64,000 bases of DNA from Cenarchaeum sp. GTDB lineage: Archaea > Thermoproteota > Nitrososphaeria > Nitrososphaerales > Nitrosopumilaceae. Location: the NCBI GenBank assembly GCA_965206845.1, contig OZ242221.1:1408001-1472000 (forward strand). The letters run 5' to 3'. Each line of letters opens with the position of its first letter. Within the stretch, counting starts at the first letter, position 1. Of this stretch, positions 10,621-27,682 are shown one piece after another. The notes beneath the pieces were generated by a model. That model ran no database searches. It was not told the DNA's origin and saw only the letters and a program-made list of their open reading frames with translations. A program made the position numbers and the translations under genes.

Positions 10621-10758
10621 AGATGTGATTCGTAATTAGCACGCAGGCACATTAGAGCACGATCTTTGGCATAATCATACGAAAGTTGCATGCTTTGGAG
10701 CACACATCTGTAAGATTATGGGCATCGAAGGCCCGATTCTTAATTGCAGATCATGTCT
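10621..10758 (+). mobile_element. 138-bp MITE, copy 1
   Basis: Imperfect terminal inverted repeats AGATGTGATTCGTAATTA / TAATTGCAGATCATGTCT; CTG duplicated on both sides; near-identical copies at 57077 and 58150. Confidence 0.92.
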
Positions 10759-10944
10759 CTGTCCTGCCTCGAATCCTCTACCGCTGGCGGGCATTTTTAC
10801 ACCAAATCTACTGCATATCCTGCCGCATGCTCTCCCCTTCCCCAAGATGCCTGTGGATGGCTTGCAAGCTATATGGGGATCATGTCCGGGACTCCTCTGG
10901 GGATTGAAGCTTTCGCAATCCGGGAAATCACGACATGCAGATGT

Positions 10945-11394
10945 CTAGAGCACCCTTATCAGGAACCTGGCCACCATGTCGCCCATCTCGGCCACCCGCG
11001 TCAGTGTATCCGCAAAGTCCTGCTGGTTGAACCTCTCCTCGTCATCGATTACGCCATAAACCCCGACTATGATCCTGCCAGACTCGTGCATTACCCTGCC
11101 TATTGCCCCGATGGAACGGCAGTAGTCCGCCACATCCTTCTCGAACCTGCTCCTCCGTGACTCGACGAGCCTCAGGTACCTGGCATGCTGGTTGTTCCTC
11201 AGGGGCACCATGCTGCCCGCCACCAGCGCGACACTTTGCTGTACCGGCTGGAACACCTCGATCTGGTGCCCAAAGGAGCCCGCATGCCTTATCAGTACGG
11301 TGAACACGTTCCTGTCATTCTCCTGATGCGAGAACCTATAGTTCTCGTGCGTCAGCCACCGCTCTACGTCACGCTGCAGCCGTGCCGGATCCAT
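10945..11394 (-). CDS. Conserved hypothetical protein (DUF2299-like)
   Basis: 149-aa ORF beginning ..VERWLTHENY; resembles archaeal DUF2299 proteins. Confidence 0.6.
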   Translation of the reverse strand: MDPARLQRDVERWLTHENYRFSHQENDRNVFTVLIRHAGSFGHQIEVFQPVQQSVALVAGSMVPLRNNQHARYLRLVESRRSRFEKDVADYCRSIGAIGRVMHESGRIIVGVYGVIDDEERFNQQDFADTLTRVAEMGDMVARFLIRVL

Positions 11395-11445
11395 ACGGTA
11401 CGGTGCGCGGCGGTCTTCTTATGGCTGTTGTTATCGATCCCTGTG

Positions 11446-12507
11446 CTATGACCGCTCGCGGAGCCAGCGCCCCAGCTCCGGCAGGACAGTCCTCTGGGAG
11501 AGCGAGCTGGCGATCATGCCCACGTGGCCTATGGGGTATATCCTCATTGCCTTGTCGGCGCTTCCCACGGCATAGTACAGCGGCATGCTGCACTCTGGTG
11601 ACACCAGGTGATCACCCGCTGCGACCTGTATGAATATCGGCATGGTGATATTCTGCAGGGATACGCGCTCCCCGCTCACATGCATCTCGTTCTTTATCAG
11701 GAGGTTGTCCTGATAGATGTTCTTTATCCACTGACGGAACAGCTCCCCGGCTATGGGCGGCGTGTCCATCAGCCACTTCTCCACTCGGATAAAGTTGTCC
11801 ACAAAGCGCTTGTTCTCTATATTGTCGAAAAAGTTGATGTACTTTGTTATTCCCTGCTCGAACGGCTTTAGCACCGAAAAGCAGTAGTACATGAACTCCG
11901 GCGGCATGTTACCGATTGTAGAGAACATCTTGTCCACATCCACATGCTTTGCCAGGTTGCTGATTACCGTGGTGTCGCGCCATCCGTCGATGACTGGCGC
12001 GGTGGCTACCAGGTTCCGCACATTCTCCGGATGCAGTGCAGTGTACGCGGCGGCAATGGTGCCGCCTGTGCAGTACCCCTGCAGGGATACGCTGTCCACG
12101 TTGGCATCTCGTTGCACAAATCTGATGCAGTGATCCAGGTACCCGTTCACATAGTCGTCCAAGCCCAGGTACTTGTCAGTCTGGCCCGGCGTTCCCCAGT
12201 CTATCATGTACACGTCAAACCCCTGATCCAGAAGGTTGCGTACCCAGCTCCTCTCGGGGTGTATGTCAAGTATGTGGTATCTGTTTACTATGGCGTATGA
12301 TATGACCAGCGGGGTTCTGTGTTGCTTCTCCGTGCGTCTCTTGTAGTGTAGCAGTCGGATCATGTCTTCTTGGTACGCCACATCGTACTCTGTGGTCTCG
12401 AGGGACACTTCGTCTAGCGCGGCAACCATCTTTGGCGCATCGGCAACGTGCCTGCCAAATCTTAAGGCGTCCTCAATTATCTTGGGATCAACGCTTACCT
12501 GCATCAT
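11446..12507 (-). CDS. phaC: Class III polyhydroxyalkanoate synthase subunit PhaC
   Basis: Lipase-box-like GYCTGG, IDWG, DHLV and GHVG motifs; adjacent to phaE. Confidence 0.95.
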   Translation of the reverse strand: MMQVSVDPKIIEDALRFGRHVADAPKMVAALDEVSLETTEYDVAYQEDMIRLLHYKRRTEKQHRTPLVISYAIVNRYHILDIHPERSWVRNLLDQGFDVYMIDWGTPGQTDKYLGLDDYVNGYLDHCIRFVQRDANVDSVSLQGYCTGGTIAAAYTALHPENVRNLVATAPVIDGWRDTTVISNLAKHVDVDKMFSTIGNMPPEFMYYCFSVLKPFEQGITKYINFFDNIENKRFVDNFIRVEKWLMDTPPIAGELFRQWIKNIYQDNLLIKNEMHVSGERVSLQNITMPIFIQVAAGDHLVSPECSMPLYYAVGSADKAMRIYPIGHVGMIASSLSQRTVLPELGRWLRERS

Positions 12508-13189
12508 CTGACCTCACACGCAGTTTGGGTTCTGCCTTGGACGCTTCTGTGACGTCTGCCTTGCTCTGTCTCCCAGGCGCGGCTTCGGCGGCCTTTGCGC
12601 CATCTGCCATACCCCGTCCTTTGGGCCCTGCTGCGATCCTGGAGGTCTTTGCGTCATCCGTCTTGCTCTCTCTTTTAAACAACAGCTGCGACTCGAGAGC
12701 CGATATCCGTTTCTTCAGATCGTGGATCTGCCGGCACACTCCATCGATCTCCTTCTTGTCTGGCAGGTTTGCCGACTTTAGCAGCATGCCTGTTATGTTG
12801 TTCCAGTGGTTGGCAAGTTCCATCTCCTGCGCCACCAGCTTTCCGTAGTTCTTGCCAAACCTTTTCGAGCCAAAAAGCTCGGTAAAGTCGTTGTCCAGTA
12901 TGGCCGTCCAGACTCCCTTGTACGCCTTGAACTGTTCTGCATCCTGTGGCACCTGCGGCACCTTTGCGTTGACCTTCTTCTGGGCATCAAACCAGGTGTC
13001 TGCCAGCTGCTTGTAGTATAGCAGCAGCGAGTCGTTGAACTCCTTGAGCTGGGCAGTCGACTCTGCCACCTCTGCTGCGATCCTCTTTGAGTACTCGGCG
13101 TAGTTGCCTATGGGTCCCATCGGTGCTAGGATCTGTGGCTTGCCGGACATCATGCGAACCAAGCCTGCCCAGAGGAACGGCGGATGCAT
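12488..13189 (-). CDS. phaE: PHA synthase subunit PhaE (start uncertain)
   Basis: Helical protein with NLPDKKEIDGV..IHDLKKRI C-terminal motif; overlaps phaC. Confidence 0.8.
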   Translation of the reverse strand: MHPPFLWAGLVRMMSGKPQILAPMGPIGNYAEYSKRIAAEVAESTAQLKEFNDSLLLYYKQLADTWFDAQKKVNAKVPQVPQDAEQFKAYKGVWTAILDNDFTELFGSKRFGKNYGKLVAQEMELANHWNNITGMLLKSANLPDKKEIDGVCRQIHDLKKRISALESQLLFKRESKTDDAKTSRIAAGPKGRGMADGAKAAEAAPGRQSKADVTEASKAEPKLRVRSDDAGKR

Positions 13190-13439: not shown

Positions 13440-14258
13440 CTACACTTGGTACTTCTCCAGTACTCCGGACTTGTTCCTGTAGGCGTGTCCGAACTCGGCG
13501 TTTGCCATGAGGTGCTCCCCGTCAAAGACTGTTCCATCCTTGCATACGAGATCCTCACCTATGCAGCAGCTGCCGCATATCCCGACCCCGCACTTCATCA
13601 TGCGCTCAAGGCTGGCCTGGACAAAGATTCCCCTGGAGTGCGCAGACCGCACGGTCTTGTACATCATAAGCTCGGGCCCACAGACGTACACCCCGTCATA
13701 ACGGGTTCTGCCGACCATCTCCTCTACCAGGTCGGTCACAAGTCCTCTCACCCCGCAGCTCCCGTCGTCTGTGGTGACGATCACCCTGTGGGGGTTCTCT
13801 GGCAGGAGCCCCTCTGCCAGGCCGTCAAAGAAGACCTCGTCTTTTGACCTCGCCCCTATGAGGACCGTGATGTCATCCTCCGGCCTGACCGCAGTCAGCA
13901 GCCGCATCATGGGAACAAGTCCCGTCCCGCCCCCGACCAGCAAGATCCTTCCACTTTTGAGATCAAACGAGTTTCCATAGGGGCCCCGGACCCCGATCTG
14001 CCCCCCGACGCCCGTGTGGAACAGTCCCGATGAGGCGATCCCGTGCCGCCTTATCGTGAATGCCGCCTTGCCGGACACCTTGGCGATCATCACGCTCATG
14101 GGCAGCTCGCCGACTCCGGGAACCCAGACCATCGCAAACTGCCCGGGAAGGGCCTCTGCCATTACGCGATCAGAGAAGACCAGCGTCCTGACCGTGGGGG
14201 TCTCGTCGATAACCTCCTCGACTGTGACGATCGTCGGGTGGTTACGATCCCTTCGCAA
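13440..14258 (-). CDS. pyrK: Dihydroorotate dehydrogenase electron transfer subunit
   Basis: RGPYGN, GGGTG, CGPE and CGVGICGSC..C 2Fe-2S motifs. Confidence 0.95.
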   Translation of the reverse strand: MRRDRNHPTIVTVEEVIDETPTVRTLVFSDRVMAEALPGQFAMVWVPGVGELPMSVMIAKVSGKAAFTIRRHGIASSGLFHTGVGGQIGVRGPYGNSFDLKSGRILLVGGGTGLVPMMRLLTAVRPEDDITVLIGARSKDEVFFDGLAEGLLPENPHRVIVTTDDGSCGVRGLVTDLVEEMVGRTRYDGVYVCGPELMMYKTVRSAHSRGIFVQASLERMMKCGVGICGSCCIGEDLVCKDGTVFDGEHLMANAEFGHAYRNKSGVLEKYQV

Positions 14259-15153
14259 GCCCCACCATCTCCTCTATCCTTGTGATCCCCTTTCCCTTCA
14301 TGTATTCCAGTATTCCGTGGTTGATCGACCCAAAGACATCGATCCAGTTGGTGCCCACGGCGCTCCCTAGCTGCACGGCGCTTGCCCCGGCCAAAAAGAG
14401 CTCCACTGTGTCCTCCCACGAGGATATGCCGCCGCACCCGATGACCGGGATGTCGTACCTGGAGGATATCTCGTAGACGCATCGGAGCGCGATCTGCTTG
14501 ATGGGGGTTCCCGACAGTCCGCCGAACCTGTTGCTGAGGATCGGCCTCTGGGTCTGGACATCTATTGCCATTGCGCGAACCGTGTTGATTGCGGTTACGG
14601 CATCGGCCCCCGAGTCCACCGCAGCCCCCACGGTGTCTAGGTAGTGCGTTGTGCCTAGGCCGACCTTGGCTATGACCGGAATACCGGTGGCGCCCTTGAC
14701 GGCCGCTATGATCCTCCCGACCAGCTCTGGATCGTCGCCGACCTCCAGGCCGACCCTTGCCACATGGGGGCACGACAGGTTCAGCTCGTACGCCGCGACC
14801 CGACATCCCTCAAACTGCCCTATCATGTCGGTAAAGTCCTCGGGTGTGGAGCCCACCAAGCTGACGACTATCGGGACGCTGCGGTTGGGCCTGATCATCC
14901 CTGCAAAGGCTGGAGCCCCGGGGTTGGACAGCCCCACCGCGTTGATCCAGCCCCCGCCCTTTACGCTGATTACGGTGGGATTGGGATATCCCTCCCACGG
15001 CTCCCTGCTCAGCGACTTTGTCACCACGGCCCCGGCGCCGGCGCGGTAAACCCTTCTGAACACGTCCAGAGAGATTCCCAGGATCCCTGATGCCAGCATC
15101 ACGGGCCCGTCCAGGCGCATCGATCCTATGGAAGTTGCCAGACTGGGCTCCAT
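14242..15153 (-). CDS. pyrD: Dihydroorotate dehydrogenase, family 1B catalytic subunit
   Basis: NAVGLSNPG, ELNLSCPH, GGLSG and IGCGGI motifs. Confidence 0.96.
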   Translation of the reverse strand: MEPSLATSIGSMRLDGPVMLASGILGISLDVFRRVYRAGAGAVVTKSLSREPWEGYPNPTVISVKGGGWINAVGLSNPGAPAFAGMIRPNRSVPIVVSLVGSTPEDFTDMIGQFEGCRVAAYELNLSCPHVARVGLEVGDDPELVGRIIAAVKGATGIPVIAKVGLGTTHYLDTVGAAVDSGADAVTAINTVRAMAIDVQTQRPILSNRFGGLSGTPIKQIALRCVYEISSRYDIPVIGCGGISSWEDTVELFLAGASAVQLGSAVGTNWIDVFGSINHGILEYMKGKGITRIEEMVGLAKGS

Positions 15154-15438
15154 CTTGATCCGTTGACCACGCTTTGAATATAACGTTTGGCTGCGGGTTG
15201 CGGTGTTTGCTGCCTGATCGCCCTAGATCTGCCAATGCGCTTTATGATCGCAGCAAACGCAAGTATTGCAGTGCTCGTACTAGAGATCCAGCAGCCGATC
15301 CGACGAATCGGTATCCATTTTGGAAAATTTTTTGTGGAAAACAGACTTGAACCGAAGACTGTGTTGTATAGATCAGAATTAAATAGCAATCATATTTGCT
15401 TGAACACTATTAAGTAAGATTGTGCCATATACAAAACT

Positions 15439-16320
15439 ATGATTGTAGGGGAGGGAATCGTAGAGCAGATAGAGATAAAGAGAATAAACTCCACAGCGCT
15501 GTTGGTTAGGCCCGACAACGCCTCTACAAAACAGAACAAGTCGGTACGGGAACTCGTTTTGAGCATCAGGGAGCACGGACTTATCCAGCCAATAACGGTT
15601 CGGCCCATGAATTCCGGTTTTGAGGTTGTAGCCGGGCACAGGAGGCTAAAGGCATGCAAACTTCTTCGGTGGAAGAGAATCCCGTGCACCGTGCGATCGC
15701 TGTCCGACAAGGCCGCATTTGAAATCCAGCTGGTGGAGAACATACAGAGGGAGAGTCTTGATCCTATCGAGGAAGCCGAGTCGTTTAAAAAATATGTTCT
15801 GGACTATGGCTGGGGCGGAGTTAGCCACCTAGCCCGGGTTATTTCAAAGAGCGAGCAATATGTTTCGGGCAGAATTCAGATACTCCGACTGCCAGAAGGG
15901 ATCCTGACCGAGATTGCACAAAAGAACCTGAGTGTCTCCCATGCAATAGAACTGATCAACCTGGATGAAAACAACCAGCAGGTTATGACGAACGCCGTCA
16001 TAAACAAGAGTTTAACCGTGCGAGGTCTCAGGGAGATGATCCGCCCCAACAGGGGCCAAGAGTCCCAAGAATACTTTGACCATTCACCATCGTCTGAGAA
16101 CAGGGTGACGGTGAAAAAGATCAAGATGTTCAAAAAATCCCTGACCGTCTTGAGAATGTCACTGGCAAATATGGACAGCTTGATCAACGAGGTCAACAAC
16201 ACTCTGAGCAGTGAGGAGAAGGTCGATCTTGTAAGAGCTCTGATGGCATACAGAATCCAGATTCATTCAATGATTGACGAGTGCCTCAGGTCAACCAGTG
16301 CTCTAAAAAGAAAACTCTGA
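15439..16320 (+). CDS. ParB/Spo0J-family protein
   Basis: SIREHGLIQPITVRP, VAGHRRLKA and ENIQRESLDPIEEA motifs followed by an HTH. Confidence 0.92.
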   Translation: MIVGEGIVEQIEIKRINSTALLVRPDNASTKQNKSVRELVLSIREHGLIQPITVRPMNSGFEVVAGHRRLKACKLLRWKRIPCTVRSLSDKAAFEIQLVENIQRESLDPIEEAESFKKYVLDYGWGGVSHLARVISKSEQYVSGRIQILRLPEGILTEIAQKNLSVSHAIELINLDENNQQVMTNAVINKSLTVRGLREMIRPNRGQESQEYFDHSPSSENRVTVKKIKMFKKSLTVLRMSLANMDSLINEVNNTLSSEEKVDLVRALMAYRIQIHSMIDECLRSTSALKRKL

Positions 16321-16329
16321 TCCTGGTAA

Positions 16330-16740
16330 TTAGACTCCTGAGCCGCACAGGCAGCGCCTGCGTTACCGGTAGTCTGCAACCGCGTTCCTGCCCATCCGTG
16401 TCGGCGATGATCCCCTTCCGGTTTCCCGAGGAGTCCTCTCAGGATGTCTTTTGTTTTGGACGCGATCCAAAAGGACTGCGGGCGCACTGATTACGGAGTG
16501 GGGCCGGCTCCTGGCTGCCACGTTGTAGCCTGTCAGCCCGTGGATCTTCTTTGGAACCACTTCTGCCCCCGCCGCCACGGGCAGGCTCCTCCCTTGGAGC
16601 ATCTCCCAAACGTCGCCGATGCCTCTCCTGTGCACCGGGGTGTGCGCCATCGCGAGGCCCTTCCTCTTCCGTACGGCGGGTCTCTGCTCGTGGATGAAAC
16701 CTGCAACATTGACTTTTCATGCATTGCCGATCCTCTCTAG
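16330..16740 (-). pseudogene. Possible degenerate IS6-like transposase remnant
   Basis: Fragments in different frames (QKWFQR; FWIASKTKDIL) weakly recall archaeal IS6 transposases; no intact ORF. Confidence 0.25.
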
Positions 16741-16910
16741 GGTGCCCGCTATCTCGGGTCGGCCTCGTCCGTTAGTGCCCTGTCCGCTCCAAGTGGCCTG
16801 AAGGCCAGAGCCACATGATGTAGACCACTTGCTCGCGCGCTACCCATGGGCTTGTGCCCTACCGCAGGGGCTCCCGGCTGTTGGCATGCGCCCGAATTGG
16901 CAGGAGAATC

Positions 16911-17267
16911 TCAGACAAGCTGCAGACCTGCAAAATAGTCCAAAACCATCGATATGTCCCCCCAAACTGACTTTTCGTCCATCCCTATTATGATGCTGTT
17001 CTCGTTTGTGTTGACGACAACAGTCTTTATGTCATTCATCTCTACTAGCATGAATTTTACGTTCTCAAATGCCAGGACGCTGGTGGAAAAAGACAATTTT
17101 CTAAACTGCTCTTGGATCTCATCGCCAGAGATACCTGCGGATTCATGCATGTTTTGGTAGACCAGTTCCCCATACAGATTAATTATAGCAATTGAGCATA
17201 TGCTACCACTCAAGGAAAGAATGTCATCGGCCATCTTGGAATAAAGAACAGTTTGCTGATTTGGCAT
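16911..17267 (-). CDS. Small roadblock/LC7-like protein
   Basis: ILSLSGSICSIAIINLYGELV start resembles the 49302 protein; follows the Lrp gene. Confidence 0.6.
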   Translation of the reverse strand: MPNQQTVLYSKMADDILSLSGSICSIAIINLYGELVYQNMHESAGISGDEIQEQFRKLSFSTSVLAFENVKFMLVEMNDIKTVVVNTNENSIIIGMDEKSVWGDISMVLDYFAGLQLV

Positions 17268-17311
17268 TATACACTACTATATGCGAGTTAATCTATTTTA
17301 AGATTTGTTTT

Positions 17312-17920
17312 TCAGGAAGTGTCACTTCCTTGTATGGCATTTTTCAAGGAAATTCTTTCCTTTATAGAAGTGTCTCCTATCCACGTTTCAAGAAATTGGT
17401 AAAACTCCTTCTTCGAGTGGTTTGCCGCATGGGCAAAGTCAGGTCCCTTGATCGGGGTCAGATCAAATGCCACATATTTGTCTATGACGTCTCCAAACAG
17501 GGTTCGATAGAAGTCACTTTCCAGATTTGCCACTTTTGTGTTTGGAAAAACCTTGATGTTGATCCAGTCGTACTCCCCTCTTGTCCTGGCGGCAAAGGCG
17601 GCAAATGGGGCAGCGCTGAGATAACTTGTAAACATTGCCACGCGTTCCTCAAACAGTTTGGAAGTCTTGAAGGATATCAGTATAAACCGAATAACCTTTC
17701 TCCCGTAATCCTGGGGTCCGGTCTTTAGGGTATACCCGGAGATGGCCCCCTCCTGTTCCAGTCGATGAATTCTTCCCAGGATGGCCCGTTCAGTTCGGTC
17801 TATGCCGTTGCGCCTAAACTCGACTGCAATCTCCTTGGTGGACACCTTTGCGTTTTTAGAAAGACATGACAGAATGATCTCGTCCATCTTGGAGATTACC
17901 AACGAATGCATTACCCGCAA
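17312..17920 (-). CDS. Lrp/AsnC-family transcriptional regulator
   Basis: MDEIILSCLSKNAKVSTKEIA..RIHRLEQEGAISGY HTH; TRGEYD RAM-domain motif. Confidence 0.85.
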   Translation of the reverse strand: MRVMHSLVISKMDEIILSCLSKNAKVSTKEIAVEFRRNGIDRTERAILGRIHRLEQEGAISGYTLKTGPQDYGRKVIRFILISFKTSKLFEERVAMFTSYLSAAPFAAFAARTRGEYDWINIKVFPNTKVANLESDFYRTLFGDVIDKYVAFDLTPIKGPDFAHAANHSKKEFYQFLETWIGDTSIKERISLKNAIQGSDTS

Positions 17921-18312
17921 CTGATATTAACACTTTACCAATTCCGGGCTTTTGAACTAGCGTGACTTGGTTCCAGATCCCATGATCCCATACGTGATCC
18001 CTGATCCATACTTGGTTTGCAGGCATGCCCGAGTCTGTCACGGGAACATGGCGACCAGAAAAAGCAGACTCTGGCTCCCTGCTGCACTTGCATGCTGTCG
18101 CGCCCGCCGCCCATTCAGGAGTAGGTGCACGCATTCGCTACGCTTGGCTCAACGCGGCATGTGGCCCCGTATTCACATTTTGTGTAGTCGGGCTTCTGCC
18201 CGCGATCATGCGAGCGGATCTGGGAGAACTCCAGCAAGTCACGTTAACACAAGAGAACCCGGCAACTAAGAGTTAAATAAAATACTGTTACCTTCTGAAT
18301 GGAATCAAAAAA

Positions 18313-18423
18313 ATGAAGGATGACTCAAAAAAGAAAAAGACATCGGGAAAGTTTTGGAAGATTTATGGGATTATCTTTGTCACAGGGGCAGTGATCCTGT
18401 TCCTGTTGGGCTGGGTAGTCTAG
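18313..18423 (+). CDS. 36-aa single-pass membrane protein (not in ORF track)
   Basis: MKDDSKKKKTSGKFWKIYGIIFVTGAVILFLLGWVV: basic N-terminus plus one hydrophobic helix; TTAAATAAA box at about 18273. Confidence 0.6.
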   Translation: MKDDSKKKKTSGKFWKIYGIIFVTGAVILFLLGWVV

Positions 18424-18617
18424 GCTGGAGAGAGCATACATGAAAAAAGACCGGTTTTGGCGGTAGCCGGTGCAAAGGTGGCACGCGGGGACCCTGCCAG
18501 GCCGGCTGTGGCGGGTAGTACCGCTGCCTCAATGCCGAAAGGCCAACGGGTCTCTTTGCGCCAGATGATCGGCCAAATAATCTGTTAAATACCGAAAGTT
18601 GGGTAACTCTTTTTGGG

Positions 18618-19478
18618 TTGAAGTATGACATTTTAGAGGATCGGGAAGATGTTGATGTCCTGTGGAAGGGCGTAGTAAAACTGGATCAGAGCTTTATTGA
18701 CTGCATGTCGGAGCCAGTCACACAGGATGGACTGAAGATCTATGCCGCCTACGACCGCAGGTTTGGCAGGGAAGACAATGCCCAGTTTGACAATCCCGGA
18801 CTATCTAGAGACTTTCCCAACGAGGTAACCATAGTCCTCAAGGGCGACAGGCACATGAAGTTTATGATGTGCTCCGTGTTCAGGAGACAGGAAGATTTTG
18901 AGGCAGGAGGACTCTTGCAAAAAACCGTCAAAAAGAAGAGAACTGTGACCAAGGGATTCCTTCTGGAGCCGTTGCCGAATACGACCATATCGGATCATGC
19001 CTGTCTGTCCACATTCCAGTTTGACAACGAAAACTCGGACAACCAAACGACAATCCAGTTTGACACGGTGGAGCAAAAATCATCCCTGATTCTGGAAAAG
19101 ATGGGCTGTGCTGCCTTTGCCTCTGGCTCGCAGGGGACCCACATCACCTTTGCAAAGGATCCAAAAAAATCGGTAACCGTCTTCTTTGTAGCATCAGACC
19201 AAAAACCCTTCATTGCAAGATTGGATGCAAACCTGGGTAGAAGGAGGATCATTTGCAGAAGCGGCGGGATGAGATCGGAGGAGATAAAGCCGGCAGACCG
19301 CTTGCAGGCCCCGGCACCAAGCCAGCGCCAGTCCGTGCTGGCACCGCCGCTTGATGAACCGTTAAAAATTCTCAACAACAGGCTCGCTAAGGGAGAAATT
19401 ACGATTTACGAGTATGAGAGTATTCGAAAGGCAATGGAGAGCAAAGCGGGTCAGTCCTCCACCGATTGGTGGGCATAG
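18618..19478 (+). CDS. Hypothetical protein with C-terminal SHOCT motif
   Basis: PLKILNNRLAKGEITIYEYESIRKAM SHOCT-like motif; TTAAATA box upstream. Confidence 0.75.
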   Translation: MKYDILEDREDVDVLWKGVVKLDQSFIDCMSEPVTQDGLKIYAAYDRRFGREDNAQFDNPGLSRDFPNEVTIVLKGDRHMKFMMCSVFRRQEDFEAGGLLQKTVKKKRTVTKGFLLEPLPNTTISDHACLSTFQFDNENSDNQTTIQFDTVEQKSSLILEKMGCAAFASGSQGTHITFAKDPKKSVTVFFVASDQKPFIARLDANLGRRRIICRSGGMRSEEIKPADRLQAPAPSQRQSVLAPPLDEPLKILNNRLAKGEITIYEYESIRKAMESKAGQSSTDWWA

Positions 19479-19550
19479 ACAGCTGAAACAATCCGGACAC
19501 AGGATAATTCCCCAAGTTGTGGCACGGTTCGTATCTGTGAGGGTGGCTAT

Positions 19551-19645
19551 GCGTAGCGGGGGCCATAAAGATCCGTCGTTTTTCAAGCGAAACGTACTTC
19601 AAATCGGACGTAGAAATGACGGATCAATGTGGCCGCCACTATGAG
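19551..19645. repeat. Long imperfect inverted repeat (hairpin or MITE-like)
   Basis: CGTAGCGGGGGCCATAAAGATCCGTCGTTTTTC matches the reverse complement of GTAGAAATGACGGATCAATGTGGCCGCCACTATG with some mismatches. Confidence 0.65.
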
Positions 19646-19954
19646 CAGTCATGCCACTCCAACAGGCTGCGGCTCCGCCCCGAAAACTAGCCAGTTCACG
19701 GTTTGCCGCCTGACAGGATCATCTGCGACACCTGGTGCCTAGTCTGTACTTGTCCAGCAGGCTGCGCGTCCGGTTGACGATGCAGGCTCCCGCTCCGGAT
19801 CCATTCAGTTCCTCAGATGTTGCCTCACTCCACTCACAAGGGCAGGCCCTTTGGATCATGTGCAGTTGGGGATCGGAGTGTCGCGCGGATGGGTGCCGTC
19901 ATGCCTTCACGGGAACCAAGGAAAACTGGTTGTCTCCCAAAATGGGAGGGCGGC

Positions 19955-21247
19955 CTACTTCGGCGGAATCTTGTACCAGGGCTTTCTTGGCATCAGGACC
20001 CATTTCACAATCAGAGAAGTGACGACTAGGTAGATCAGGATTCCAATCGGCTCTATCCAGTTTGGATCGTTTGTGCCGGGGAGTATTCCCAAGGCGGGCT
20101 CTACGGCGTAGACGAATATCAGTCCGGCCATCAGTGGCGCCATTGCGACAAAGAATATCATGAGAGACCACGTGTCCCGGATTGCCCTTACCAGATCCCT
20201 GTATGTCCCGTGCGGCTGCTTCCACTTGTTCGGCCCAACCCATGACTGCATTCCGCCCGCATACCAGTACACCATGCCCTGCAACAGCATCGCACCGATA
20301 ATGTTGCCGAGCGTTACGGGAACGAGGTTCTTGAGCCATGCCTCTCCCCATGTATAGTCTGCACCGGCCCAGATTCCCGCAGGCAGGGCAAAGTGGTTTA
20401 CTATGCTGTGCTCGAACCCGGTGGCAAAGAATATGGATACGGGTATGCCGATCAGGACAATCTTGGCAATGACCTCCTGGGTTCTAAACGCCCCCCACAC
20501 GCCCATGCCAATCATCCAGTTCGCAAAGATTCCCCTATAGAATAGCTGATCCCATTCAAGCACGTTGACCTTGGTATTGCCAATGCCTGCCAGCATTTCC
20601 ATCAATGCAGAGCCGGCAGGTCCAGCTTGATCTGCGCCAATAATTATCATCCACGAGATTACAAATCCAGCTACCCAGTGCCCAGAGTGGGTAATCGTCC
20701 ACTGCCACAGCACCTCCCGCCATTTGGCCTGGCCTGTCATCAGCGATATTCCCGAGGTCATATAATCCCCGGTTACAAGGTTGGAGCCATAGATGATCAC
20801 AAGGGCTAGAGCGGAGAAGCCAAATACGCCAAACATCAGGAACTTTCCAAGTCCGGGTGAGAGATCCGGTGCGACCGTGGACATTATCATCCACGAGAAG
20901 AATGCCGCAAAGGCGAGGTAGCTCATTGACTGCCAGCCCATGAGAATTCCCTGCGCGGGGTTCACCTTGGTTTTGGCGAGTCCAAGATTGCTTAGCGTCT
21001 TTATCGTGTCTGCAATGCCAAGCAGTCCTGGCAACATGCGTGGTGGTGGTGGTGTTTCTTCAGTGGCACTTTCTGCCTGTGCAGAGGATGCAGGAGTGCC
21101 AAGGCTAGCTGCGTTTGCAACGGGCGGCGGTGTTGCCTTGGCCGGGGGCATTGACGGTGCAGAGGGGGTTGAAGGCGTTGCAATGGCGCCCAAACCAGCG
21201 GTTGATACGGCGCCAGGCACGTTTATTATATCACCGGGGGTACTCAT
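19955..21247 (-). CDS. Formate/nitrite transporter (FNT) family protein, candidate cyanate transporter
   Basis: GSNLVTGD, GIFANWMI, GFEHSIVN and NLVPVTLGNIIG FNT motifs; Pro/Ala-rich N-tail and extra C-terminal helices. Confidence 0.92.
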   Translation of the reverse strand: MSTPGDIINVPGAVSTAGLGAIATPSTPSAPSMPPAKATPPPVANAASLGTPASSAQAESATEETPPPPRMLPGLLGIADTIKTLSNLGLAKTKVNPAQGILMGWQSMSYLAFAAFFSWMIMSTVAPDLSPGLGKFLMFGVFGFSALALVIIYGSNLVTGDYMTSGISLMTGQAKWREVLWQWTITHSGHWVAGFVISWMIIIGADQAGPAGSALMEMLAGIGNTKVNVLEWDQLFYRGIFANWMIGMGVWGAFRTQEVIAKIVLIGIPVSIFFATGFEHSIVNHFALPAGIWAGADYTWGEAWLKNLVPVTLGNIIGAMLLQGMVYWYAGGMQSWVGPNKWKQPHGTYRDLVRAIRDTWSLMIFFVAMAPLMAGLIFVYAVEPALGILPGTNDPNWIEPIGILIYLVVTSLIVKWVLMPRKPWYKIPPK

Positions 21248-21874
21248 TCTTAGAACAATTATTCCGTTTAGCGAATTAAGTGTTAGTCGTTATGTTAGTT
21301 TATCTAGTCCAAAAAATACAATTCCTGCCATCCGGGCATCCAAGACGATGGAGGCACACTCCTTGGTACTGGCACCGCGGCCAGGCAGAATTACGTAACA
21401 GCTCCTCTTAGTGGTGTCTTGTGCGCATGTTTGTGGATGCCACACTGGCTGTTCCCACATGCGAGACCTGCGGCGGCTGTATCGTGCCATGGGCATATCC
21501 GTTGGCACACCTGCGCGCCGCACCATGCCCTTAATCTCGGTTCGTTTGTACCGAGTTCCATCTCATGGCCCTTCTGCCTGTTGTCGGTCTTCTGATGCCT
21601 GCCAAAATCTGGCAGATGTCCAGGCTCTGTGGACTCCTTTCCAAACCCCGATGTGCCTTTTCTGCCTCTGGTGCATTGGAATGGAGCCGCGGCCGGCTGC
21701 AACCAGAGCCAGTTTGCAGCCCAGACGGGGACTGATTCACCCCAATGCCTCTCAAAAATTGTCCAACGCGGTGCCTTAACCTGAAAGTTACCAGACATCG
21801 GGTAATCTTATAGGCATAACTCTCACGTTTTTTCCTTAAAAGCAAATTAATCAGTATGGTGCTTTCTAAAACAA

Positions 21875-22852
21875 TTGTTTGTTAATCCATACTTGCTACT
21901 GGCATCCACTCTGTTCTTGATGCCGTTTGCGATGACCGAGGTTCTGGGAAGCGTAGTCATCAACGAGATTGAGTTTGATCCGGCTGGAGGGGAGGCCCAG
22001 TGGATCGAACTGCACAACCCAACCAACTCATCTGTGTCCTTGGATGGTTTTGAGCTGCAACTCCATGACGGCAATGCGGCCGTGGCGACTATTCCCGTTC
22101 CTCTTTTCTCTGGGGACACGCTTCGGCCGGGGGGATATTACGTGGTGCCCATGGGCGACTCCCTGCAGCATTTTTCTGATGAGGTGCAGAACCTTGCCGC
22201 CGTACTGTCCTTTGAAATGAAGACTTTGGACAACGTCCAAGGACTAAACGACGCACTTGGAAGTGACAAAACCTGGCAGCGGTTTCCCGACGGGACAGAT
22301 TCTGGGACATTCGGAGACTGGACATTCAGGGCTGCTACAAAGGGGCTGGATAATGGCAATTTGGGCCAGGTGGTGGCTGAATGCACCCTTGACCCGTTTT
22401 GCTGGGGGAAGCTGGACGTATTTTTTCATAACGAGCACCCTATCCAAGCCGACGGGCGTCTTTTCTTGATCGAGACCTTCTATGACTCGAAGAGGATAGA
22501 GGCGGATTTTGTTCTCGAGGAGAAAAAGATTCTGATATCGCTGATTTCTCCAGATTTTCCACAGCTGGGGGCGAGCTCGCCATTCTTGCATGTGACCATC
22601 CCTGACGAGCTTTTGGGCGGCTCGTATTCTGTCCTTGCAGACGGCGAACCAAAACCGTTCCATCAGATAGCCAATCAGACAAACACCCGCCTGATTATCG
22701 ATCACTTGGCAGACGAGAAGCTCATAGAGATTATGGGCACAAGGGTCATTCCTGAATTTCCAGTGGGATCCCTGATGGTGGTCACAGTTTCGGTCTTTTC
22801 CATACTGGTCCTATGCCGCTGCTGCGGTTCAAAATATTTTTGGAAGGTATAG
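21875..22852 (+). CDS. Secreted lamin-tail-domain protein with PEF-type C-terminal sorting signal
   Basis: Signal peptide; VVINEIEFDP..QWIELHNP..L.PGGYYVV LTD motif; GTRVIPEFP followed by a TM helix and basic tail. Confidence 0.85.
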   Translation: MFVNPYLLLASTLFLMPFAMTEVLGSVVINEIEFDPAGGEAQWIELHNPTNSSVSLDGFELQLHDGNAAVATIPVPLFSGDTLRPGGYYVVPMGDSLQHFSDEVQNLAAVLSFEMKTLDNVQGLNDALGSDKTWQRFPDGTDSGTFGDWTFRAATKGLDNGNLGQVVAECTLDPFCWGKLDVFFHNEHPIQADGRLFLIETFYDSKRIEADFVLEEKKILISLISPDFPQLGASSPFLHVTIPDELLGGSYSVLADGEPKPFHQIANQTNTRLIIDHLADEKLIEIMGTRVIPEFPVGSLMVVTVSVFSILVLCRCCGSKYFWKV

Positions 22853-23279
22853 GCCACCCATGGCATCTATTGTGGCATAACAGTCGGCATGCGGACGAAA
22901 TTCGGCCTGTCCTTGGAGTGTATTGGAAGGCTGCTTCTTCTGGCATGCGGGCGCGGATTCTCCCCGACAAGTGTGACTATCACACCAATCAGGAAGGCAG
23001 TCTCGCGGGAGTGTTCCAAGCGGCGGTCCGGCCAGTAATGCGGATGTCTGCAGTGCCTGTCCATTGCGGCATATGCGCGGCTGCAGTCAAGTAGTGTGAT
23101 AGGTAGGCTCTGGCGTGCTCAGGGAGGGATATCGCAGTAACCATGCCCTAAGATAAACTGTTATTGGTTAGCATACAGTGTAAAGGTATTATGCAATGTG
23201 AAGGGGGAAACACTTTCTGGATTTCCCATCGTTTTTAGCCATCAGGAAGGATTTTTTAAACCTCAGCCATGCACGAAGC

Positions 23280-25034
23280 TTGGATTTTTTTGGATTCTCC
23301 TATCTGAAAAAATGGGTAATCATCGGGACGATGATAGGAATTGTTGCGGGTCTTGGTTCGGTGGCCTTTTTTCTTATGCTCCAGGCGGCAACATTTGTCT
23401 TCCTAGGCCTTGGGGCAGGTTATGTCCCTCCAAATTTTGAGATAATCGCCACATCGTACACCTCTGTTGCCGAAAGACCGTGGATGATTCCCCTGATCAC
23501 CGGCGGCGGGGGTCTTGTAGTGGGGTTGCTTACAACCAGGTTTGCTCCAGAGTCTGCAGGACACGGAACCGAGGCCGTGATAGATGCGTTTCATAACAAA
23601 GAAGGGGTAATACGCCCTCGGATTCCACTACTGAAGGCTGTAACCGCCTCGATAACAATAGGCACTGGTGGGAGCGGGGGAAGGGAGGGGCCGGCAGCCC
23701 AAATTGCCGCCGGCTTTGGCTCAATAGTCAGCAGGCTTCTAAAACTGGGCGTCGAGGATCGCAGAATTGCAGTGGCAACGGGACTTGGGGCCGGAATTGG
23801 AAGCTTGTTCAAGGCTCCCCTTGGCGCAGCCCTGCTAAGCACGGAAATCTTCTACCGCCGGGATTTTGAGGTCAGGGCCCTGCTTCCGGCGCTGATTGCA
23901 TCTGTAACCGGGTTCGTAATATTTGGCTCAGTTTTTGGATGGCTCCCGATATTTTCAATATCTGAATCCGCCGCGGAGTTCAACCAGCCCCTGCACTTCA
24001 TACTGTATGCCGTAGTCGGGGTCTGCTGTGCAGTGACAGGCAGGCTGTACGTGACCTCTTTTTATGGAATCCAGGACCTCTTTCAAAAATGGAGCATTCC
24101 CAGATTCATCAAACCTGCCATAGGCGGACTGCTGGTGGGAATTATCGGCATGTTTCTTCCCCAGATTTTAGGCGGGGGGTACGGGTGGCTGCAGGTGGGG
24201 ATATTTGACGATGTGAAGCTGTTCCCAATTTGGATTCTAATAGCCATTCTGCTTCTCAAGATTCTGGCCACCTCCCTGTCCATAGGATCCGGCGGAAGTG
24301 CCGGCGTCTTTGGACCCGGCCTGGTAATAGGGGGGTTTGTAGGTGCAGTAGTGGGGGAGATCTTTCACTCGTTTGCCCTGTTTACGGACATCCAGATTTC
24401 AACGATAGCCATTGTCAGCATGATTGCGTTTTTTGGAGCCGTCTCCAAGGCCCCAATCTCGACCATAATCATGGGCAGTGAAATGACGGGAGGATATGCA
24501 TTGCTGCCAGCCATGATTCTTGCCTCTGTGGTCTCCTATGGGCTGATTGGCTTGAAGTCCAGCATATACAGGAGTCAGCCAATGGACAGGACAGAGTCCC
24601 CGGCACACAAGCACGAATACCACGCCCTGCTAAAAAAGCGCCCAATCAGTGATGCCATTGACATCAGTTTCAATAAGATACGCCATGACAGGACAGTGGG
24701 TGAGGCAATTCAGATCTTGAAGGACTCAAAACCAGACAGCATTGCAATAGTCGATGCCGACGGCAAATACGTCGGTTTTGCGGACTCGGATGGCCTGGCG
24801 AAACTGGGCAGTCCGGATGCTCTCCTGTCGGAGATAATTCCGTCAATTGTGGCTGCGCCAGGGGTTGGCACCGGGGATTCCCTGTACGATGCGGTCAAAA
24901 AAATGTCTGATTCAAAGATGATGGAACTGCCGGTCATAAGCGAGGAGAATGTCGTGGTGGGGACAGTCTCCATGTCCGGCATTATGGAGGCATACGATCA
25001 AAAGCTTGCAGATTCGGATGATGTGAGGGACTAA
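23280..25034 (+). CDS. ClC chloride channel/antiporter with C-terminal CBS pair
   Basis: GHGTE, GREGP and GVFGP motifs; multiple TM helices; two CBS domains. Confidence 0.93.
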   Translation: MDFFGFSYLKKWVIIGTMIGIVAGLGSVAFFLMLQAATFVFLGLGAGYVPPNFEIIATSYTSVAERPWMIPLITGGGGLVVGLLTTRFAPESAGHGTEAVIDAFHNKEGVIRPRIPLLKAVTASITIGTGGSGGREGPAAQIAAGFGSIVSRLLKLGVEDRRIAVATGLGAGIGSLFKAPLGAALLSTEIFYRRDFEVRALLPALIASVTGFVIFGSVFGWLPIFSISESAAEFNQPLHFILYAVVGVCCAVTGRLYVTSFYGIQDLFQKWSIPRFIKPAIGGLLVGIIGMFLPQILGGGYGWLQVGIFDDVKLFPIWILIAILLLKILATSLSIGSGGSAGVFGPGLVIGGFVGAVVGEIFHSFALFTDIQISTIAIVSMIAFFGAVSKAPISTIIMGSEMTGGYALLPAMILASVVSYGLIGLKSSIYRSQPMDRTESPAHKHEYHALLKKRPISDAIDISFNKIRHDRTVGEAIQILKDSKPDSIAIVDADGKYVGFADSDGLAKLGSPDALLSEIIPSIVAAPGVGTGDSLYDAVKKMSDSKMMELPVISEENVVVGTVSMSGIMEAYDQKLADSDDVRD

Positions 25035-25114
25035 ACCCCACGGCAGCATGATGTGCCAGCAGACTTGTCGACCCTGTACCGGATCGGGCACGATACCGCA
25101 ACGTCTGGGTGGGT

Positions 25115-25136
25115 GAATAAAAAAAATAAAAAAAAT
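25115..25136 (-). terminator. Poly-T archaeal terminator downstream of cynS
   Basis: Long A-run on + strand (T-run on - strand) immediately after the stop codon. Confidence 0.6.
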
Positions 25137-25141
25137 GGGTG

Positions 25142-25726
25142 TTAAGACACGAAGGCCTTGAAGTTTAGCCACTTTCCGTCCATGACGATCGTGACTCTTT
25201 CGTTGATCTGCGGAGTTGCCTCCTGGAGCGTCATTTCAGGCAGTGTGTTGCCTTCTGAGCGCCTAAACATATGGAAGCTGAAGTCTATTGCACTCATAAT
25301 TCCGTCGTTTCCACGTCCCGGCGCGTCGCCTGGTAGTGAGAACGTTGCGAAGAGTTCACCGATGATCTCCCTTATCGGATCCCCATAGTTTGCAAGTACT
25401 TCAATCAACCTGTAGTTGAAGGGATCGTTTGGTATTTCTGCGAACTTTCTTACTGGCGGGCGATCATACTCTGCCGTTTGTTCAGCTGATAGGCCAAGGG
25501 TGTCACAAATTGCATGCCTGTCAGCCTCACTCGGGCGGTGTACTCCGTTGATAAACCCGGCAACAAATACGGGGTTCTTGTTTATCACTGCCGCCAATGA
25601 TTTTGTTCCTGGGGCTGTACCGGTGTAGGAAAAGCCTTTCTCTTCCATTGCCATCTTTGCAGCCGTTATTGTCTCATCAGATACTTTGAAGCTTGTCATT
25701 ACGAATGTGGAAGCAGATGTCCTCAT
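25142..25726 (-). CDS. cynS: Cyanate hydratase (cyanase), divergent with insertions
   Basis: PNDPFNYRLIE..YG, DGIMSAIDF and RVTIVMDGKWL match the cyanase catalytic domain (Arg, Glu, Ser retained); TTTAAA box about 25 bp upstream. Confidence 0.92.
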   Translation of the reverse strand: MRTSASTFVMTSFKVSDETITAAKMAMEEKGFSYTGTAPGTKSLAAVINKNPVFVAGFINGVHRPSEADRHAICDTLGLSAEQTAEYDRPPVRKFAEIPNDPFNYRLIEVLANYGDPIREIIGELFATFSLPGDAPGRGNDGIMSAIDFSFHMFRRSEGNTLPEMTLQEATPQINERVTIVMDGKWLNFKAFVS

Positions 25727-26980
25727 AACTTTACAGCCGCCACAAAACTTTAAACATCAATTATCGTGTTGCGCAACCAACATCGCAGAGAGGAGTGGCA
25801 TGACCGCGGCGACCGCCGCCTCCAAGATGCCACCTGCCGTGCACCGGGCGTTCAAGGAAAGAAAAGAGCATGTCCCGCATCGCTGCGGAGCCGCGTCCGC
25901 GCTGGCCCTATTGAGCGAAGTCCCAGTCTTTGCAATTGCGGCTTGCTCTAGCAAAAGGATGGAGGGGGACAGTGGGAAAATCCTCTAATGGGCATGTGCC
26001 AGAAATTCGTCCTACGGCCGACTGGCTAGCAGGCGCTCATTGCAGAGGATACCTCCCACATGCCAAAGACGCCTTGGGCGCTTGCCGGCCCAGAACATGG
26101 ATGTGGAACCACATCCCCACCCGAAGAGGATCGGCGGGATCAGAATGGCATGCAGCATACATTCTGGCGGCGTATGTATTCGGATCTGCCACAGGATCAG
26201 GATTATCGAAATAATCTATATGGTATTGTAATAAAGCATTGCTTTACCTAGAAACAGATAGAAAATTTAGCAATGAATATAGTGGGAATTACACCAGTAA
26301 TCCAGAGGTTGGGCAGCCCTGACGCATGCGGATCAATTGGCACGTCGTCGGGTTTACCTTGACACAAAGAGCATGCCTGCGCAAACTTTCATACGGTTCG
26401 ATGCAATGCGCTACGTTATGCAGCTATGTGCTGCAGGTAAATATCCCAAAATGGCGGCCTGGGAGTCTGCATCCGGATGACACCTTTGCACATTCTTAGG
26501 ATCCGGCCTCTCATTGAGACATTCCCAGATCTCTCGCCGGTTTGCAGCTGCGGCGTTACCTCAGTTCCGCCACACGGCACGCAGGCTCCGCTACATGCGG
26601 CGCCGGCTGTCTTCGCGCCTGGCAGGTAACTGCCGCTCTTACCATGTCGGATGCAGGTCTGCCGCCATTTATCTGGAATCGGGATCCCTCTGTGCTAGCT
26701 TGCCCCTTGACATGGAGATCATCCCTGGGCAGGCCGTGACTGCCTCGTTCATGCAGCCTACCACACCCAATGCGCGGGGCAGCTCTGTGCGCAGCAGGGT
26801 CTGCTCATGTCTGCCCATGCGTAGGCGCCGTATCCTTTGCGATCAGAGCCTTTTGGTCACATGCGGTGCACCAAGGTGGCATGACAGGCGTGTAGTACGA
26901 GTGGTGGGATCCAAACGGTAGCCTGCGGGACACAGCCGGCGCAGGCAAAAAGCTCAAATGCCGACACGGCAAAGTATGCT

Positions 26981-27682
26981 ATGCCATACCTCTTTGTGGA
27001 TATCGAGACCGTACCGAACCTGACTGCCGACGAGTATTTTGATCTCCGGCAGCAGGTCGACTCGGGCGCCATCTCAAAGGATACGGGGAACCGGGATCTG
27101 TTCTGGAAGTTCAAGAACGGGGCGCTCAACCCGCTGGACGGCAGGGTATCCATGATAACGTACAGCGTCGGCGGCTCCCACACCTTCCGGCTCAAGGAGT
27201 GGGAGCTGGGGGAACGGGAGACGTTGCTCCGGTTTTACCGCCTTCTGGGGGATCTGCTGCGGGGCACGGGCGAGACATGCACCATAGTGGGGCACAACGT
27301 GTTGAGCTTTGATCTGCTATTCCTGCACGGCAGGATGAGGCACCATGGCATCGACGACGACAAGTGGCTGTACCAGAGGGTATTTCGCGGGCCGGTAATA
27401 ATCGACCTGCTTCAGCTGCACCTTCCGCTGAACGGCTACCGGCTCAGGGGCCTCAAGCACGACGTCTTGGCCCATGCCTACGGATTTCAGGTCAAGTCCT
27501 CCACCGGGGCTGGAGCCATAGAACACTACTTTCAGGGAGACTATGACAGCATCCTACAGTACTCGGAGCGCGAGTTCATCTATCCTGATATGTTTGCAAA
27601 GATACAGAGGGACGGGCTGGTCACAAGGGAACAGCTGCAGGACTCGATCGAGCACTACAACCTGGAGCACGGGCTGACGTGA
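26981..27682 (+). CDS. DEDD 3'-5' exonuclease / RNase H-like domain protein
   Basis: VDIETVP, VGHNVLSFDL and IDL motifs. Confidence 0.8.
   Translation: MPYLFVDIETVPNLTADEYFDLRQQVDSGAISKDTGNRDLFWKFKNGALNPLDGRVSMITYSVGGSHTFRLKEWELGERETLLRFYRLLGDLLRGTGETCTIVGHNVLSFDLLFLHGRMRHHGIDDDKWLYQRVFRGPVIIDLLQLHLPLNGYRLRGLKHDVLAHAYGFQVKSSTGAGAIEHYFQGDYDSILQYSEREFIYPDMFAKIQRDGLVTREQLQDSIEHYNLEHGLT

Follow-up and report, generated by a model that had tools for sequence, protein, structure and literature searches.

A block of eight genes around cynS, the gene for cyanase, lies at positions 15,439 to 25,726 of a 64,000-nucleotide stretch of an archaeal genome (Cenarchaeum sp., contig OZ242221.1; this whole stretch is hereafter called the window). 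We read this island, with a probability of roughly two in three, as a working cyanate-to-ammonia module in a sponge-associated ammonia-oxidising archaeon; on this reading, the block is homologous to the cynS locus of Nitrososphaera gargensis, is old, and has moved among Nitrosopumilaceae. Cyanase carries out the bicarbonate-dependent conversion of cyanate to ammonia and CO2.

The window is G000:C1:1408001-1472000 of the one-contig genome G000 (1,649,950 bp, 99.99% complete, 0.02% contamination), whose GC content of 57.1% is atypical for Nitrosopumilaceae. The genome carries archaeal amoA, one Amt, a full urease operon and two solute:sodium symporter (SSS, DUR3-like) transporters. Its same-family relatives have genomes of 1.1-1.8 Mb, many of them closed, and the loci closest to the island come from metagenome-assembled genomes (MAGs) named 'Nitrosopumilus sp.'; together with amoA, this upholds the 'Nitrosopumilaceae-like' host proposed in an earlier note on this DNA, which was made from the sequence alone. 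RNA libraries containing the stretch are labelled sponge metagenome, and close kin of the host also come from sponge data. Pfam and NCBIfam profile searches found all eight genes at the coordinates that the note had given, directly after pyrD, as well as a ninth element that it had lacked, a decayed aTrm56 fragment inside the block. The gene list therefore stood, while the right compositional border had to be moved from 25,726 to 26,980, the start of the next native gene. The features are as follows, with GC3 standing for the GC content at third codon positions.

14242..15153, minus strand: pyrD, the native left flank, followed by pyrK at 13440-14258 (DHO_dh 193.6 bits; GC3 0.776; present in 39 of 41 relatives).
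15439..16320, plus strand: ParB-like protein of the cynS-linked type, with ParB_N and HTH_ParB domains (Pfam 72.3 and 60.2 bits).
16363..16716, minus strand: decayed fragment (relic) of an aTrm56 tRNA methyltransferase (Trm56 36.5 bits, profile positions 24-113 of 119).
16911..17267, minus strand: p118, a 118-residue protein that may be DUF6659/roadblock-like (a lead from the ESM Atlas; Pfam gives a weak Profilin match).
17312..17920, minus strand: Lrp/AsnC-like winged-helix protein of the cynS-linked type (NCBIfam LrpA/AsnC/Lrp, E 4e-8 to 1e-3, below the cut-offs).
18618..19478, plus strand: SHOCT protein of 286 residues (SHOCT 23.3 bits, below the cut-off of 27).
19955..21247, minus strand: extended formate/nitrite transporter (FNT) anion channel of 430 residues (Form_Nir_trans, PF01226, 176.4 bits).
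21875..22852, plus strand: secreted lamin-tail-domain (LTD) protein with a PEFG-CTERM-like anchor (LTD 45.8 bits; PEFG-CTERM 21.1 bits, below the cut-off of 25).
23280..25034, plus strand: ClC-type anion/proton exchanger with CBS domains (Voltage_CLC 296.6 bits, CBS 37.2 bits).
25142..25726, minus strand: CynS, of a divergent clade, with 194 residues or, as the real start may be Met10, 185 (PF02560 63.9 bits).
25727..26980: spacer of 1.25 kb with no gene recognised (five open reading frames (ORFs) without a Pfam match).
26981..27682, plus strand: native right-flank gene of 233 residues (GC3 0.791; 99% identical in locus L004, where it lies directly beside cynS).

CynS matches the Cyanate_lyase C-terminal domain (PF02560; 63.9 bits, cut-off 25), and the match contains some 27 extra residues. 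Among 20 aligned cyanases, 21 columns are invariant, and these include R106, E109, S145 and the motif GDGIMSAI. In a phmmer alignment, the three residues fall on R96, E99 and S122 of E. coli CynS (1dw9_A); Arg96, Glu99 and Ser122 are the catalytic residues of the E. coli enzyme. The best 17 Foldseek matches of the CynS model are all cyanases (E 5.5e-6 to 4.9e-4), and in the monomer model the N-terminal domain has a predicted local distance difference test (pLDDT) value above 90. When two copies were modelled together, the score was 0.59, compared with 0.00 for the best of three controls, and passed a mark that had been attained for 20 of 30 solved one-chain pairs and for 1 of 23 single chains. 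The dimer runs agreed in at least 91% of their contacts, with a partner pLDDT of at least 80, and the interface lies in the C-terminal domain (residues 101-129, 142-156 and 175-186). Cyanase complexes have already been solved, so this pass may reflect memory or likeness. With that limit on the 0.59 score, the model is consistent with a two-domain cyanase that forms the usual intertwined dimer. Overall, the cyanase gene is real and intact, its catalytic residues are conserved, and its product is probably active as an enzyme.

In the CynS tree, a clade with support of 99/95 unites a marine group with long insertions (13 rows) with a group of Nitrospira and Nitrososphaeraceae sequences; the marine group is sister to the latter, not nested inside it. 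A word-indexed search found the insertions in nine 90%-identity clusters that are 50-96% identical, and archaeal-type CynS as such makes up 15 clusters. The cluster of CynS at 90% identity or more has 12 members, on contigs of 1.6-2.5 Mb. The N. gargensis-type CynS already has part of the main insertion, DKTGRGGDGIMSA (GRGGDGIMSA).

Within its own family, cynS is rare, as the earlier note had supposed. CynS was found in two of 41 relatives (G000 itself and G003), and in one of the 24 other genomes of the same family. In a sample of 201 genomes of the order, PF02560 occurred in three (G000 and two in family f15) and in none of the 40 others of the same family. No CynS match was found in the same-genus genome G001, which is 96% complete.

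To compare the neighbourhoods, we took 12 cynS loci from a scan of GTDB species genomes and added that of G111, a closed Nitrososphaeraceae genome of 2,833,868 bp, giving 13 loci in which the island proteins were placed by tblastn. The FNT gene adjoins cynS in 11 of these, the exceptions being L014, which reaches its contig end, and a distant Thermoproteota match. The gap between the two genes is 3.9 kb in the window, with LTD and ClC between them, and in ten other loci they are adjacent or within about 1.5 kb. SHOCT occurs in 12 of the 13 loci, ParB in 11, p118 and Lrp in 10 each and LTD in 7, and the ClC gene only in the three closest (L004-L006). Wherever there is enough flank (L004-L014, L031 and L032), SHOCT adjoins cynS or FNT; LTD adjoins FNT in eight loci; and p118 is conserved beside Lrp in ten, at 29-97% identity. 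All seven genes other than ClC are present in G111 (L032), in the order FNT(-), LTD(-), CynS(+), SHOCT(-), ParB(+), p118(-), Lrp(-). Judging by its size, G111 is probably N. gargensis Ga9.2.

Between the window and the soil loci, protein identity is 59-67% for FNT, 56-65% for Lrp, about 50% for ParB, 36-40% for CynS, 32-36% for SHOCT and about 30% for p118. This seven-gene synteny indicates that the block is old within the ammonia-oxidising archaea and did not come from bacteria; no tree indicates a bacterial source. The earlier note had pictured a horizontally acquired module, to be checked by synteny with relatives. Foreign composition and a variable position (see below) fit that picture. 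The block is not, however, a loose collection of cargo: seven of its eight genes are syntenic with the Nitrososphaeraceae cynS locus. A published survey of 70 nitrifier genomes, in the passages available, also places cynS beside focA/nirC in N. gargensis, as the only archaeon with both (PMC10753782).

The ParB-like and Lrp-like genes tie the island to a second ammonia-releasing locus. A further Lrp/ParB pair lies at G000:C1:313292-314740 (ParB at 313928-314740), 34% and 41% identical to the island pair, respectively. It adjoins ureC, ureA and ureE/G/D between the two SSS transporters (region C1:313292-319737). Six loci from three families (L035-L040), chosen only as the best ParB matches in genomes that lack cynS, all have ParB beside ureC, ureA and SSS, and four of them have Lrp as well. 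Of the 41 best ParB matches found in the order sample, 38 share a contig with ureC, at a distance of 2.4-13.1 kb; the other three comprise two cynS-linked copies (G000 and G111) and one on a short contig. Counted from the other side, 41 of 62 genomes with ureC have such a ParB nearby. These figures cover the 41 best matches in 201 genomes (the 14 weakest listed and 56 unlisted rows were not used), and related genomes among them are not independent.

In the trees, the cynS-linked ParB (82/99) and Lrp (95/93) form clades separate from the urease-linked ones, and each clade spans both families. Two old paralogous ParB/Lrp modules thus accompany two ammonia-releasing loci. As paralogues of the urease-operon pair, ParB and Lrp are probably regulators, not partition genes or mobile-element cargo. 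The island itself has no ParA-like gene, a statement limited to the block as no genome-wide ParA search was made. Island ParB reads VAGHRRLKA where GERRxRA, the arginine-rich box motif of ParB_N proteins, is expected. As for possible binding sites, no perfect inverted repeat with 7-nt arms was found in three or more of ten loci, and a scan of 11-mers with one mismatch allowed gave only noise in AT-rich loci.

The urease connection extends to position in G003. This genome (95% complete) has no ureC match, and its cynS block (L007, 4849-14124) lies directly after genes for an M3 peptidase and a 102-residue protein, the same genes that precede Lrp-ParB-urease in G000. Between that 102-residue gene and FNT, G003 also has genes for a TrmB-type regulator and a DUF5718 protein. 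The 102-residue gene beside the urease-linked Lrp was considered as a relative of p118 and proved to be unrelated (E 74). For p118 itself, the ESM Atlas offers a lead: its nearest clusters are DUF6659/roadblock-like Nitrososphaerota proteins (0.92, with 190 of 256 features shared). The SHOCT protein consists of a beta-rich N-terminal domain and a C-terminal SHOCT motif (model pLDDT 68); VIA-align matches cover only its C-terminal helical hairpin and are uninformative (Z at most 5.2), and Atlas leads reach at most 0.80.

The FNT protein has its channel core at residues 81-329, preceded by a low-complexity stretch rich in Pro, Ala, Ser and Thr (residues 1-75) and followed by a C-terminal extension of about 100 residues with hydrophobic stretches, which is kept across the archaeal subfamily. 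Its central His (GFEHS) and the Thr of LVTG align with those of solved FNTs. The best solved match of the core is LCIA (9v2a, E 3.7e-29), followed by FocA (5.7e-19) and NirC (1.3e-13). Some 100 clusters, 63-99% identical, make up its subfamily, and the next matches fall to 35% identity or below; the few source names are Thaumarchaeota or Nitrososphaera. In the order sample, FNT occurs at 65-86% identity in G160, G016, G111 and G206, besides G000. Candidate substrates are cyanate, nitrite and bicarbonate, the co-substrate of cyanase.

The ClC-CBS gene is absent from the 40 other same-family genomes and found in 11 of 40 in family f15, at 49-55% identity. The gating Glu (GREGP), proton Glu (STE-I) and Tyr (TGGY) align with ClC-ec1, in which they are the exchanger residues. 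In place of GSGIP, with its central Ser, the window and L005 read GHGTE and four soil homologues GHGTD, and the selectivity of the protein may differ from that of chloride-type ClCs. The soil copies (L042-L046) read GTEGP, compared with GREGP in the island. Among the cynS loci, ClC-CBS is present in only the three closest and is an addition specific to this lineage.

Contigs 95-99% identical to the stretch occur in three sponge metatranscriptome runs, all of one study. Word depth per bin was 62-204 over cynS (357 in one contig), 19-93 over the 5' half of FNT (135 and 169 in two contigs), 1-15 over pyrD/pyrK and 0-0.6 over ClC; no contig covered the spacer at 26041-26607 in the three runs. The missing RNA contigs over ClC and the spacer are no sign of silence. 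Depth this uneven is hard to obtain from DNA and offers a hint, but only a hint, that cynS and FNT are transcribed.

On our reading of the island, CynS would act inside the cell, splitting cyanate with the help of bicarbonate; of the two products, CO2 and ammonia, the latter could serve ammonia monooxygenase and assimilation, as it does in N. gargensis. The extended FNT would most likely be the channel for cyanate or else for an anion that is a co-substrate or product (such as bicarbonate or nitrite), while a second anion is the probable cargo of the lineage-added ClC-CBS. The genes for the ParB-like, Lrp-like and roadblock-like proteins would together control the block, as a dedicated module with a paralogous counterpart at the urease locus. 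The block as a whole would be homologous to the N. gargensis-type cynS locus, surviving in few lineages and having been moved or passed on. The analysis directly shows which genes are there, their synteny, composition and distribution, the conserved catalytic residues, and that sponge RNA libraries contain cynS and FNT; that the enzyme is active, what each transporter carries, that the regulators act on the block and how it was inherited are inferred.

Composition sets the island apart from its surroundings. The GC content of 15154-25726 is 51.3%, compared with 57.1% for the genome, which places it at the 1.4th percentile of 10.5-kb windows, in keeping with the suggestion that the block is more AT-rich than the core. 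GC3 is 0.51-0.62 in the eight island genes, 0.776 in pyrD and 0.791 in the right neighbour (genomic mean 0.72, standard deviation 0.08, over 748 long ORFs), and the breaks in GC and GC3 coincide exactly with gene borders. The islands of L005 and L006 again have a GC content below that of their flanks (0.45-0.50 vs 0.54-0.58), whereas in G003, a genome of 33-35% GC, it is slightly above. Among the marks of a horizontally acquired island, we thus found deviant composition with sharp borders and a patchy distribution, and no integrase, tRNA or repeat.

The position of the island also varies, with a separate site in each of four lineages. Its neighbours in G000 are pyrD and the 233-residue gene; the L005 and L006 islands are flanked by orthologues of what lies at 1452 kb and 1489 kb in G000; that of G003 holds the urease-locus position; and G160 has a trio of LTD, FNT and SHOCT without cynS, set between genes that adjoin each other near 895.5 kb in G000. 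The aTrm56 relic points in the same direction. The host has an intact aTrm56 elsewhere (C1:791134-791481, 152 bits), to which the relic is only 44% identical over 66 residues, so it is not a recent internal duplication; a word-indexed search for its donor returned only the fragment's own clusters (two matches). Variable position, low GC in L005 and L006, a foreign Trm56 relic and duplicated ParB/Lrp together suggest movement among archaeal genomes, and acquisition of the island by this lineage seems to us somewhat better than an even bet. The trees, in which marine and soil copies of CynS, ParB and Lrp are sister clades with long branches between them, agree with an ancient block of the archaea that most lineages have since lost and that was reshuffled or handed on among lineages.

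A simple insertion between conserved neighbours was rejected, as the pyrD site is rearranged and offers no clean empty site. The pyrD regions of 15 relatives (L016-L030) yielded a single match to an island gene, a 32% Lrp-like one in G010. Beyond pyrD, they have about 13 kb of DNA that matches nothing in the window, and in nine of the 15 this is followed by orthologues of window 34.7-39.2 kb, whose relative orientation is reversed there. Next to pyrK in G000 is a PhaC/PhaE pair (class III polyhydroxyalkanoate synthase; window 11446-13189), and a second copy lies about 145 kb away at G000:C1:1566654-1568544, with 89% and 67% protein identity.

Several observations weigh against a mobile, working cyanate module. 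CynS misses the NCBIfam cut-offs for cyanase (NF002773, 74.3 vs 150; TIGR00673, 60.6 vs 113.3), and the stem branch of its marine group is 0.92 substitutions per site. Three insertions lengthen it compared with canonical cyanases, one of about 7 residues within the N-terminal domain, one of about 14 immediately ahead of GDGIMSAI and one of about 15 ahead of the last strand; insertions adjoin the catalytic strand, and the C-terminal domain of the monomer model has a pLDDT of only 46-62. The FNT subfamily is more diverse than archaeal-type CynS (about 100 clusters at 90% identity vs 15), and two of the five FNT-carrying genomes in the order sample (G160 and G016; a 30% match in G194 is set aside) lack PF02560. 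In the closed same-family genome G160 (L031, G160:C1:899500-919499, 8211-11507), the trio of LTD, FNT and SHOCT is 58%, 86% and 60% identical to the island proteins, and no cynS, ParB or Lrp was found at that locus. The RNA depths come from assembled contigs, which cannot rank genes and may include library DNA. Finally, the window has no tRNA gene, and between 14 and 28 kb there is no Rfam family and no convincing flanking direct repeat (those spanning the borders are only 15-18 nt at 83-88% identity). No island gene or spacer ORF has an integrase-like Pfam match, and the spacer ORFs within the island have no Pfam match at all except the Trm56 fragment. The island proteins also diverge about as much as the few flanking core genes, so vertical descent fits as well.

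This last point leads to the strongest alternative, under which the ammonia-oxidising archaea had this locus from their ancestor and passed it down vertically, most Nitrosopumilaceae then lost it, and any rearrangement took place within the genome. We regard this as quite possible, at odds somewhat short of even. Compared with L005/L006, island proteins are 61-90% identical (p118 about 54%) and the flanking core genes 32-75%; compared with G003, the figures are 45-77% and 45-80%. The reciprocal monophyly of marine and soil CynS, ParB and Lrp, with their long branches, would be expected from such a history. The lack of integrase, tRNA and repeats in the searched region also agrees with it, and the surroundings of pyrD are rearranged anyway. 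However, the GC3 deficit of the island against the genomic mean of 0.72, its sharp borders and the same deficit in L005 and L006 argue against this history, as do the four locations, a Trm56 relic that does not derive from the host copy, and the lack of a match in G001. The island ParB and Lrp are also closer to those of Nitrososphaeraceae (50% and 60%) than to the native urease-linked pair (41% and 34%).

A second alternative accepts the enzyme and changes its purpose: the module would detoxify cyanate that arises spontaneously from urea and carbamoyl phosphate in a urea-using symbiont, rather than draw energy from external cyanate. The full urease operon and the two DUR3-like transporters make such a symbiont plausible, and the paralogous ParB/Lrp modules shared by the cyanase and urease loci suggest linked physiology. 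The earlier note took FNT for the cyanate importer; this is no more than a candidate role, as the same FNT, LTD and SHOCT occur without cynS in G160 and the nearest solved relative is algal LCIA. FNT without cynS implies a role of the channel independent of cyanase. Nevertheless, a channel gene beside cynS in 11 of 13 loci fits membrane traffic, and G003 retains the cynS block with no ureC match, and so a cyanase without a urease. Moreover, the homologous locus of N. gargensis supports growth on cyanate, as stated in passages of PMC10432482 and PMC6790972. On balance, we consider detoxification alone unlikely.

It is improbable that the divergent CynS has changed its function, with another substrate or a non-catalytic role. 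The long stem branch, the three insertions and the scores below the NCBIfam equivalog cut-offs would suit such a change, as would the rarity of close homologues: in a search of 1.84 billion representatives, 21 reached E at most 0.001 and only two reached 1e-30 or lower. The low scores measure divergence, and are not a structural family feature. Against a changed function, the 21 invariant columns are retained with the catalytic Arg, Glu and Ser and GDGIMSAI; the dimer interface is kept in the model; the N. gargensis-type enzyme already has part of the main insertion (GRGGDGIMSA); and linkage to the same neighbour genes is conserved.

Misassembly or contamination from another organism is suggested only by the filing of L004 (CBDAOT010000006.1), 96-99% identical to window 15.4-28.5 kb, under a 'Candidatus Poribacteria' MAG (probably a binning error in a sponge metagenome), and can practically be dismissed for a single-contig genome of this completeness and purity, given that cynS and the native right-flank genes are also joined in L004, the latter at 98-99% identity, that 95-97% of sampled words of 19900-25800 are present in six runs from four studies, and that the nearest relatives of all eight proteins are in Nitrososphaerota.

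Returning to the reading as a working module, it bears on what the literature says of cyanase in these archaea. In the portions available, one paper describes N. gargensis as the only genome-sequenced ammonia-oxidising archaeon with a known cyanase (PMC10432482), and two others state that sponge Thaumarchaeota encode none (PMC7848895, PMC6790972). The sponge symbiont Ca. Nitrosokoinonia is likewise described, in an extract of PMC11812461, as unable to use cyanate, with nitrite oxidisers proposed to feed the archaea by splitting it. Excerpts of PMC12625717 report cynS in the soil genera TH5896 and TA-21. We found no report of cynS in marine or sponge Nitrosopumilaceae in a search that left supplements and subscription journals outside, nor, supplements again excluded, of a link between ParB and the cyanase or urease loci of ammonia-oxidising archaea. 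The island CynS scores below the NCBIfam cut-offs, and a cyanase of this kind may escape routine annotation.

Perhaps the ammonia-oxidising archaea own a whole family of 'ammonia-release' loci, for urease and cyanase, each with a paralogous pair of an Lrp and a ParB-like protein that is possibly switched by cytidine triphosphate, and the sponge symbionts among the Nitrosopumilaceae oxidise host-derived cyanate directly, by way of a fast-evolved cyanase. The cyanase locus may then be an ancient sibling of the urease locus, whose position it takes in G003. We offer this broader idea tentatively and think it rather unlikely; if it is true, cyanase could no longer be said to be missing from the ammonia-oxidising archaea of the sea and of sponges. 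A working module would in itself change the proposed division of labour between nitrite oxidisers and archaea in sponges. It would also be a concrete candidate for cyanate-driven nitrification in marine hosts, and the ParB/Lrp pairing at urease and cyanase loci would give a handle on the regulation of organic nitrogen use in these archaea.

The island can be compared with four known systems. The canonical bacterial and eukaryotic cyanases (E. coli 1dw9; T. urticae 5uk3) have the same two-domain fold and the catalytic Arg, Glu and Ser, and form an intertwined dimer with which the island model is consistent; by comparison, island CynS is at most about 30% identical, has insertions of about 7, 14 and 15 residues, and is not encoded in a cynTSX or cynABDS operon. 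The green-algal LCIA/NAR1-type FNT (9v2a), whose role concerns bicarbonate, is the best solved match to the island FNT core and has the central His and Thr in common with it, whereas the island protein has long N- and C-terminal extensions. The urease/DUR3 locus of ammonia-oxidising archaea resembles the cynS locus in having a paralogous ParB-like/Lrp-like pair beside enzyme and transporter genes, and both release ammonia from a small organic nitrogen compound. The urease/DUR3 locus has another enzyme and SSS instead of FNT, and no p118, SHOCT or LTD was detected there.

The fourth system is the cynS locus of N. gargensis and of soil Nitrososphaeraceae MAGs. Both hosts are ammonia oxidisers, the same seven genes occur in a recognisable order, and the two CynS proteins share the insertion motif GRG(G/N)DGIMSA. 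Unlike that locus, the window has a CynS that is only 36-40% identical and has two more insertions, an added ClC-CBS gene, a gene order inverted in places, a Trm56 relic, and a host among the marine, sponge-type Nitrosopumilaceae.

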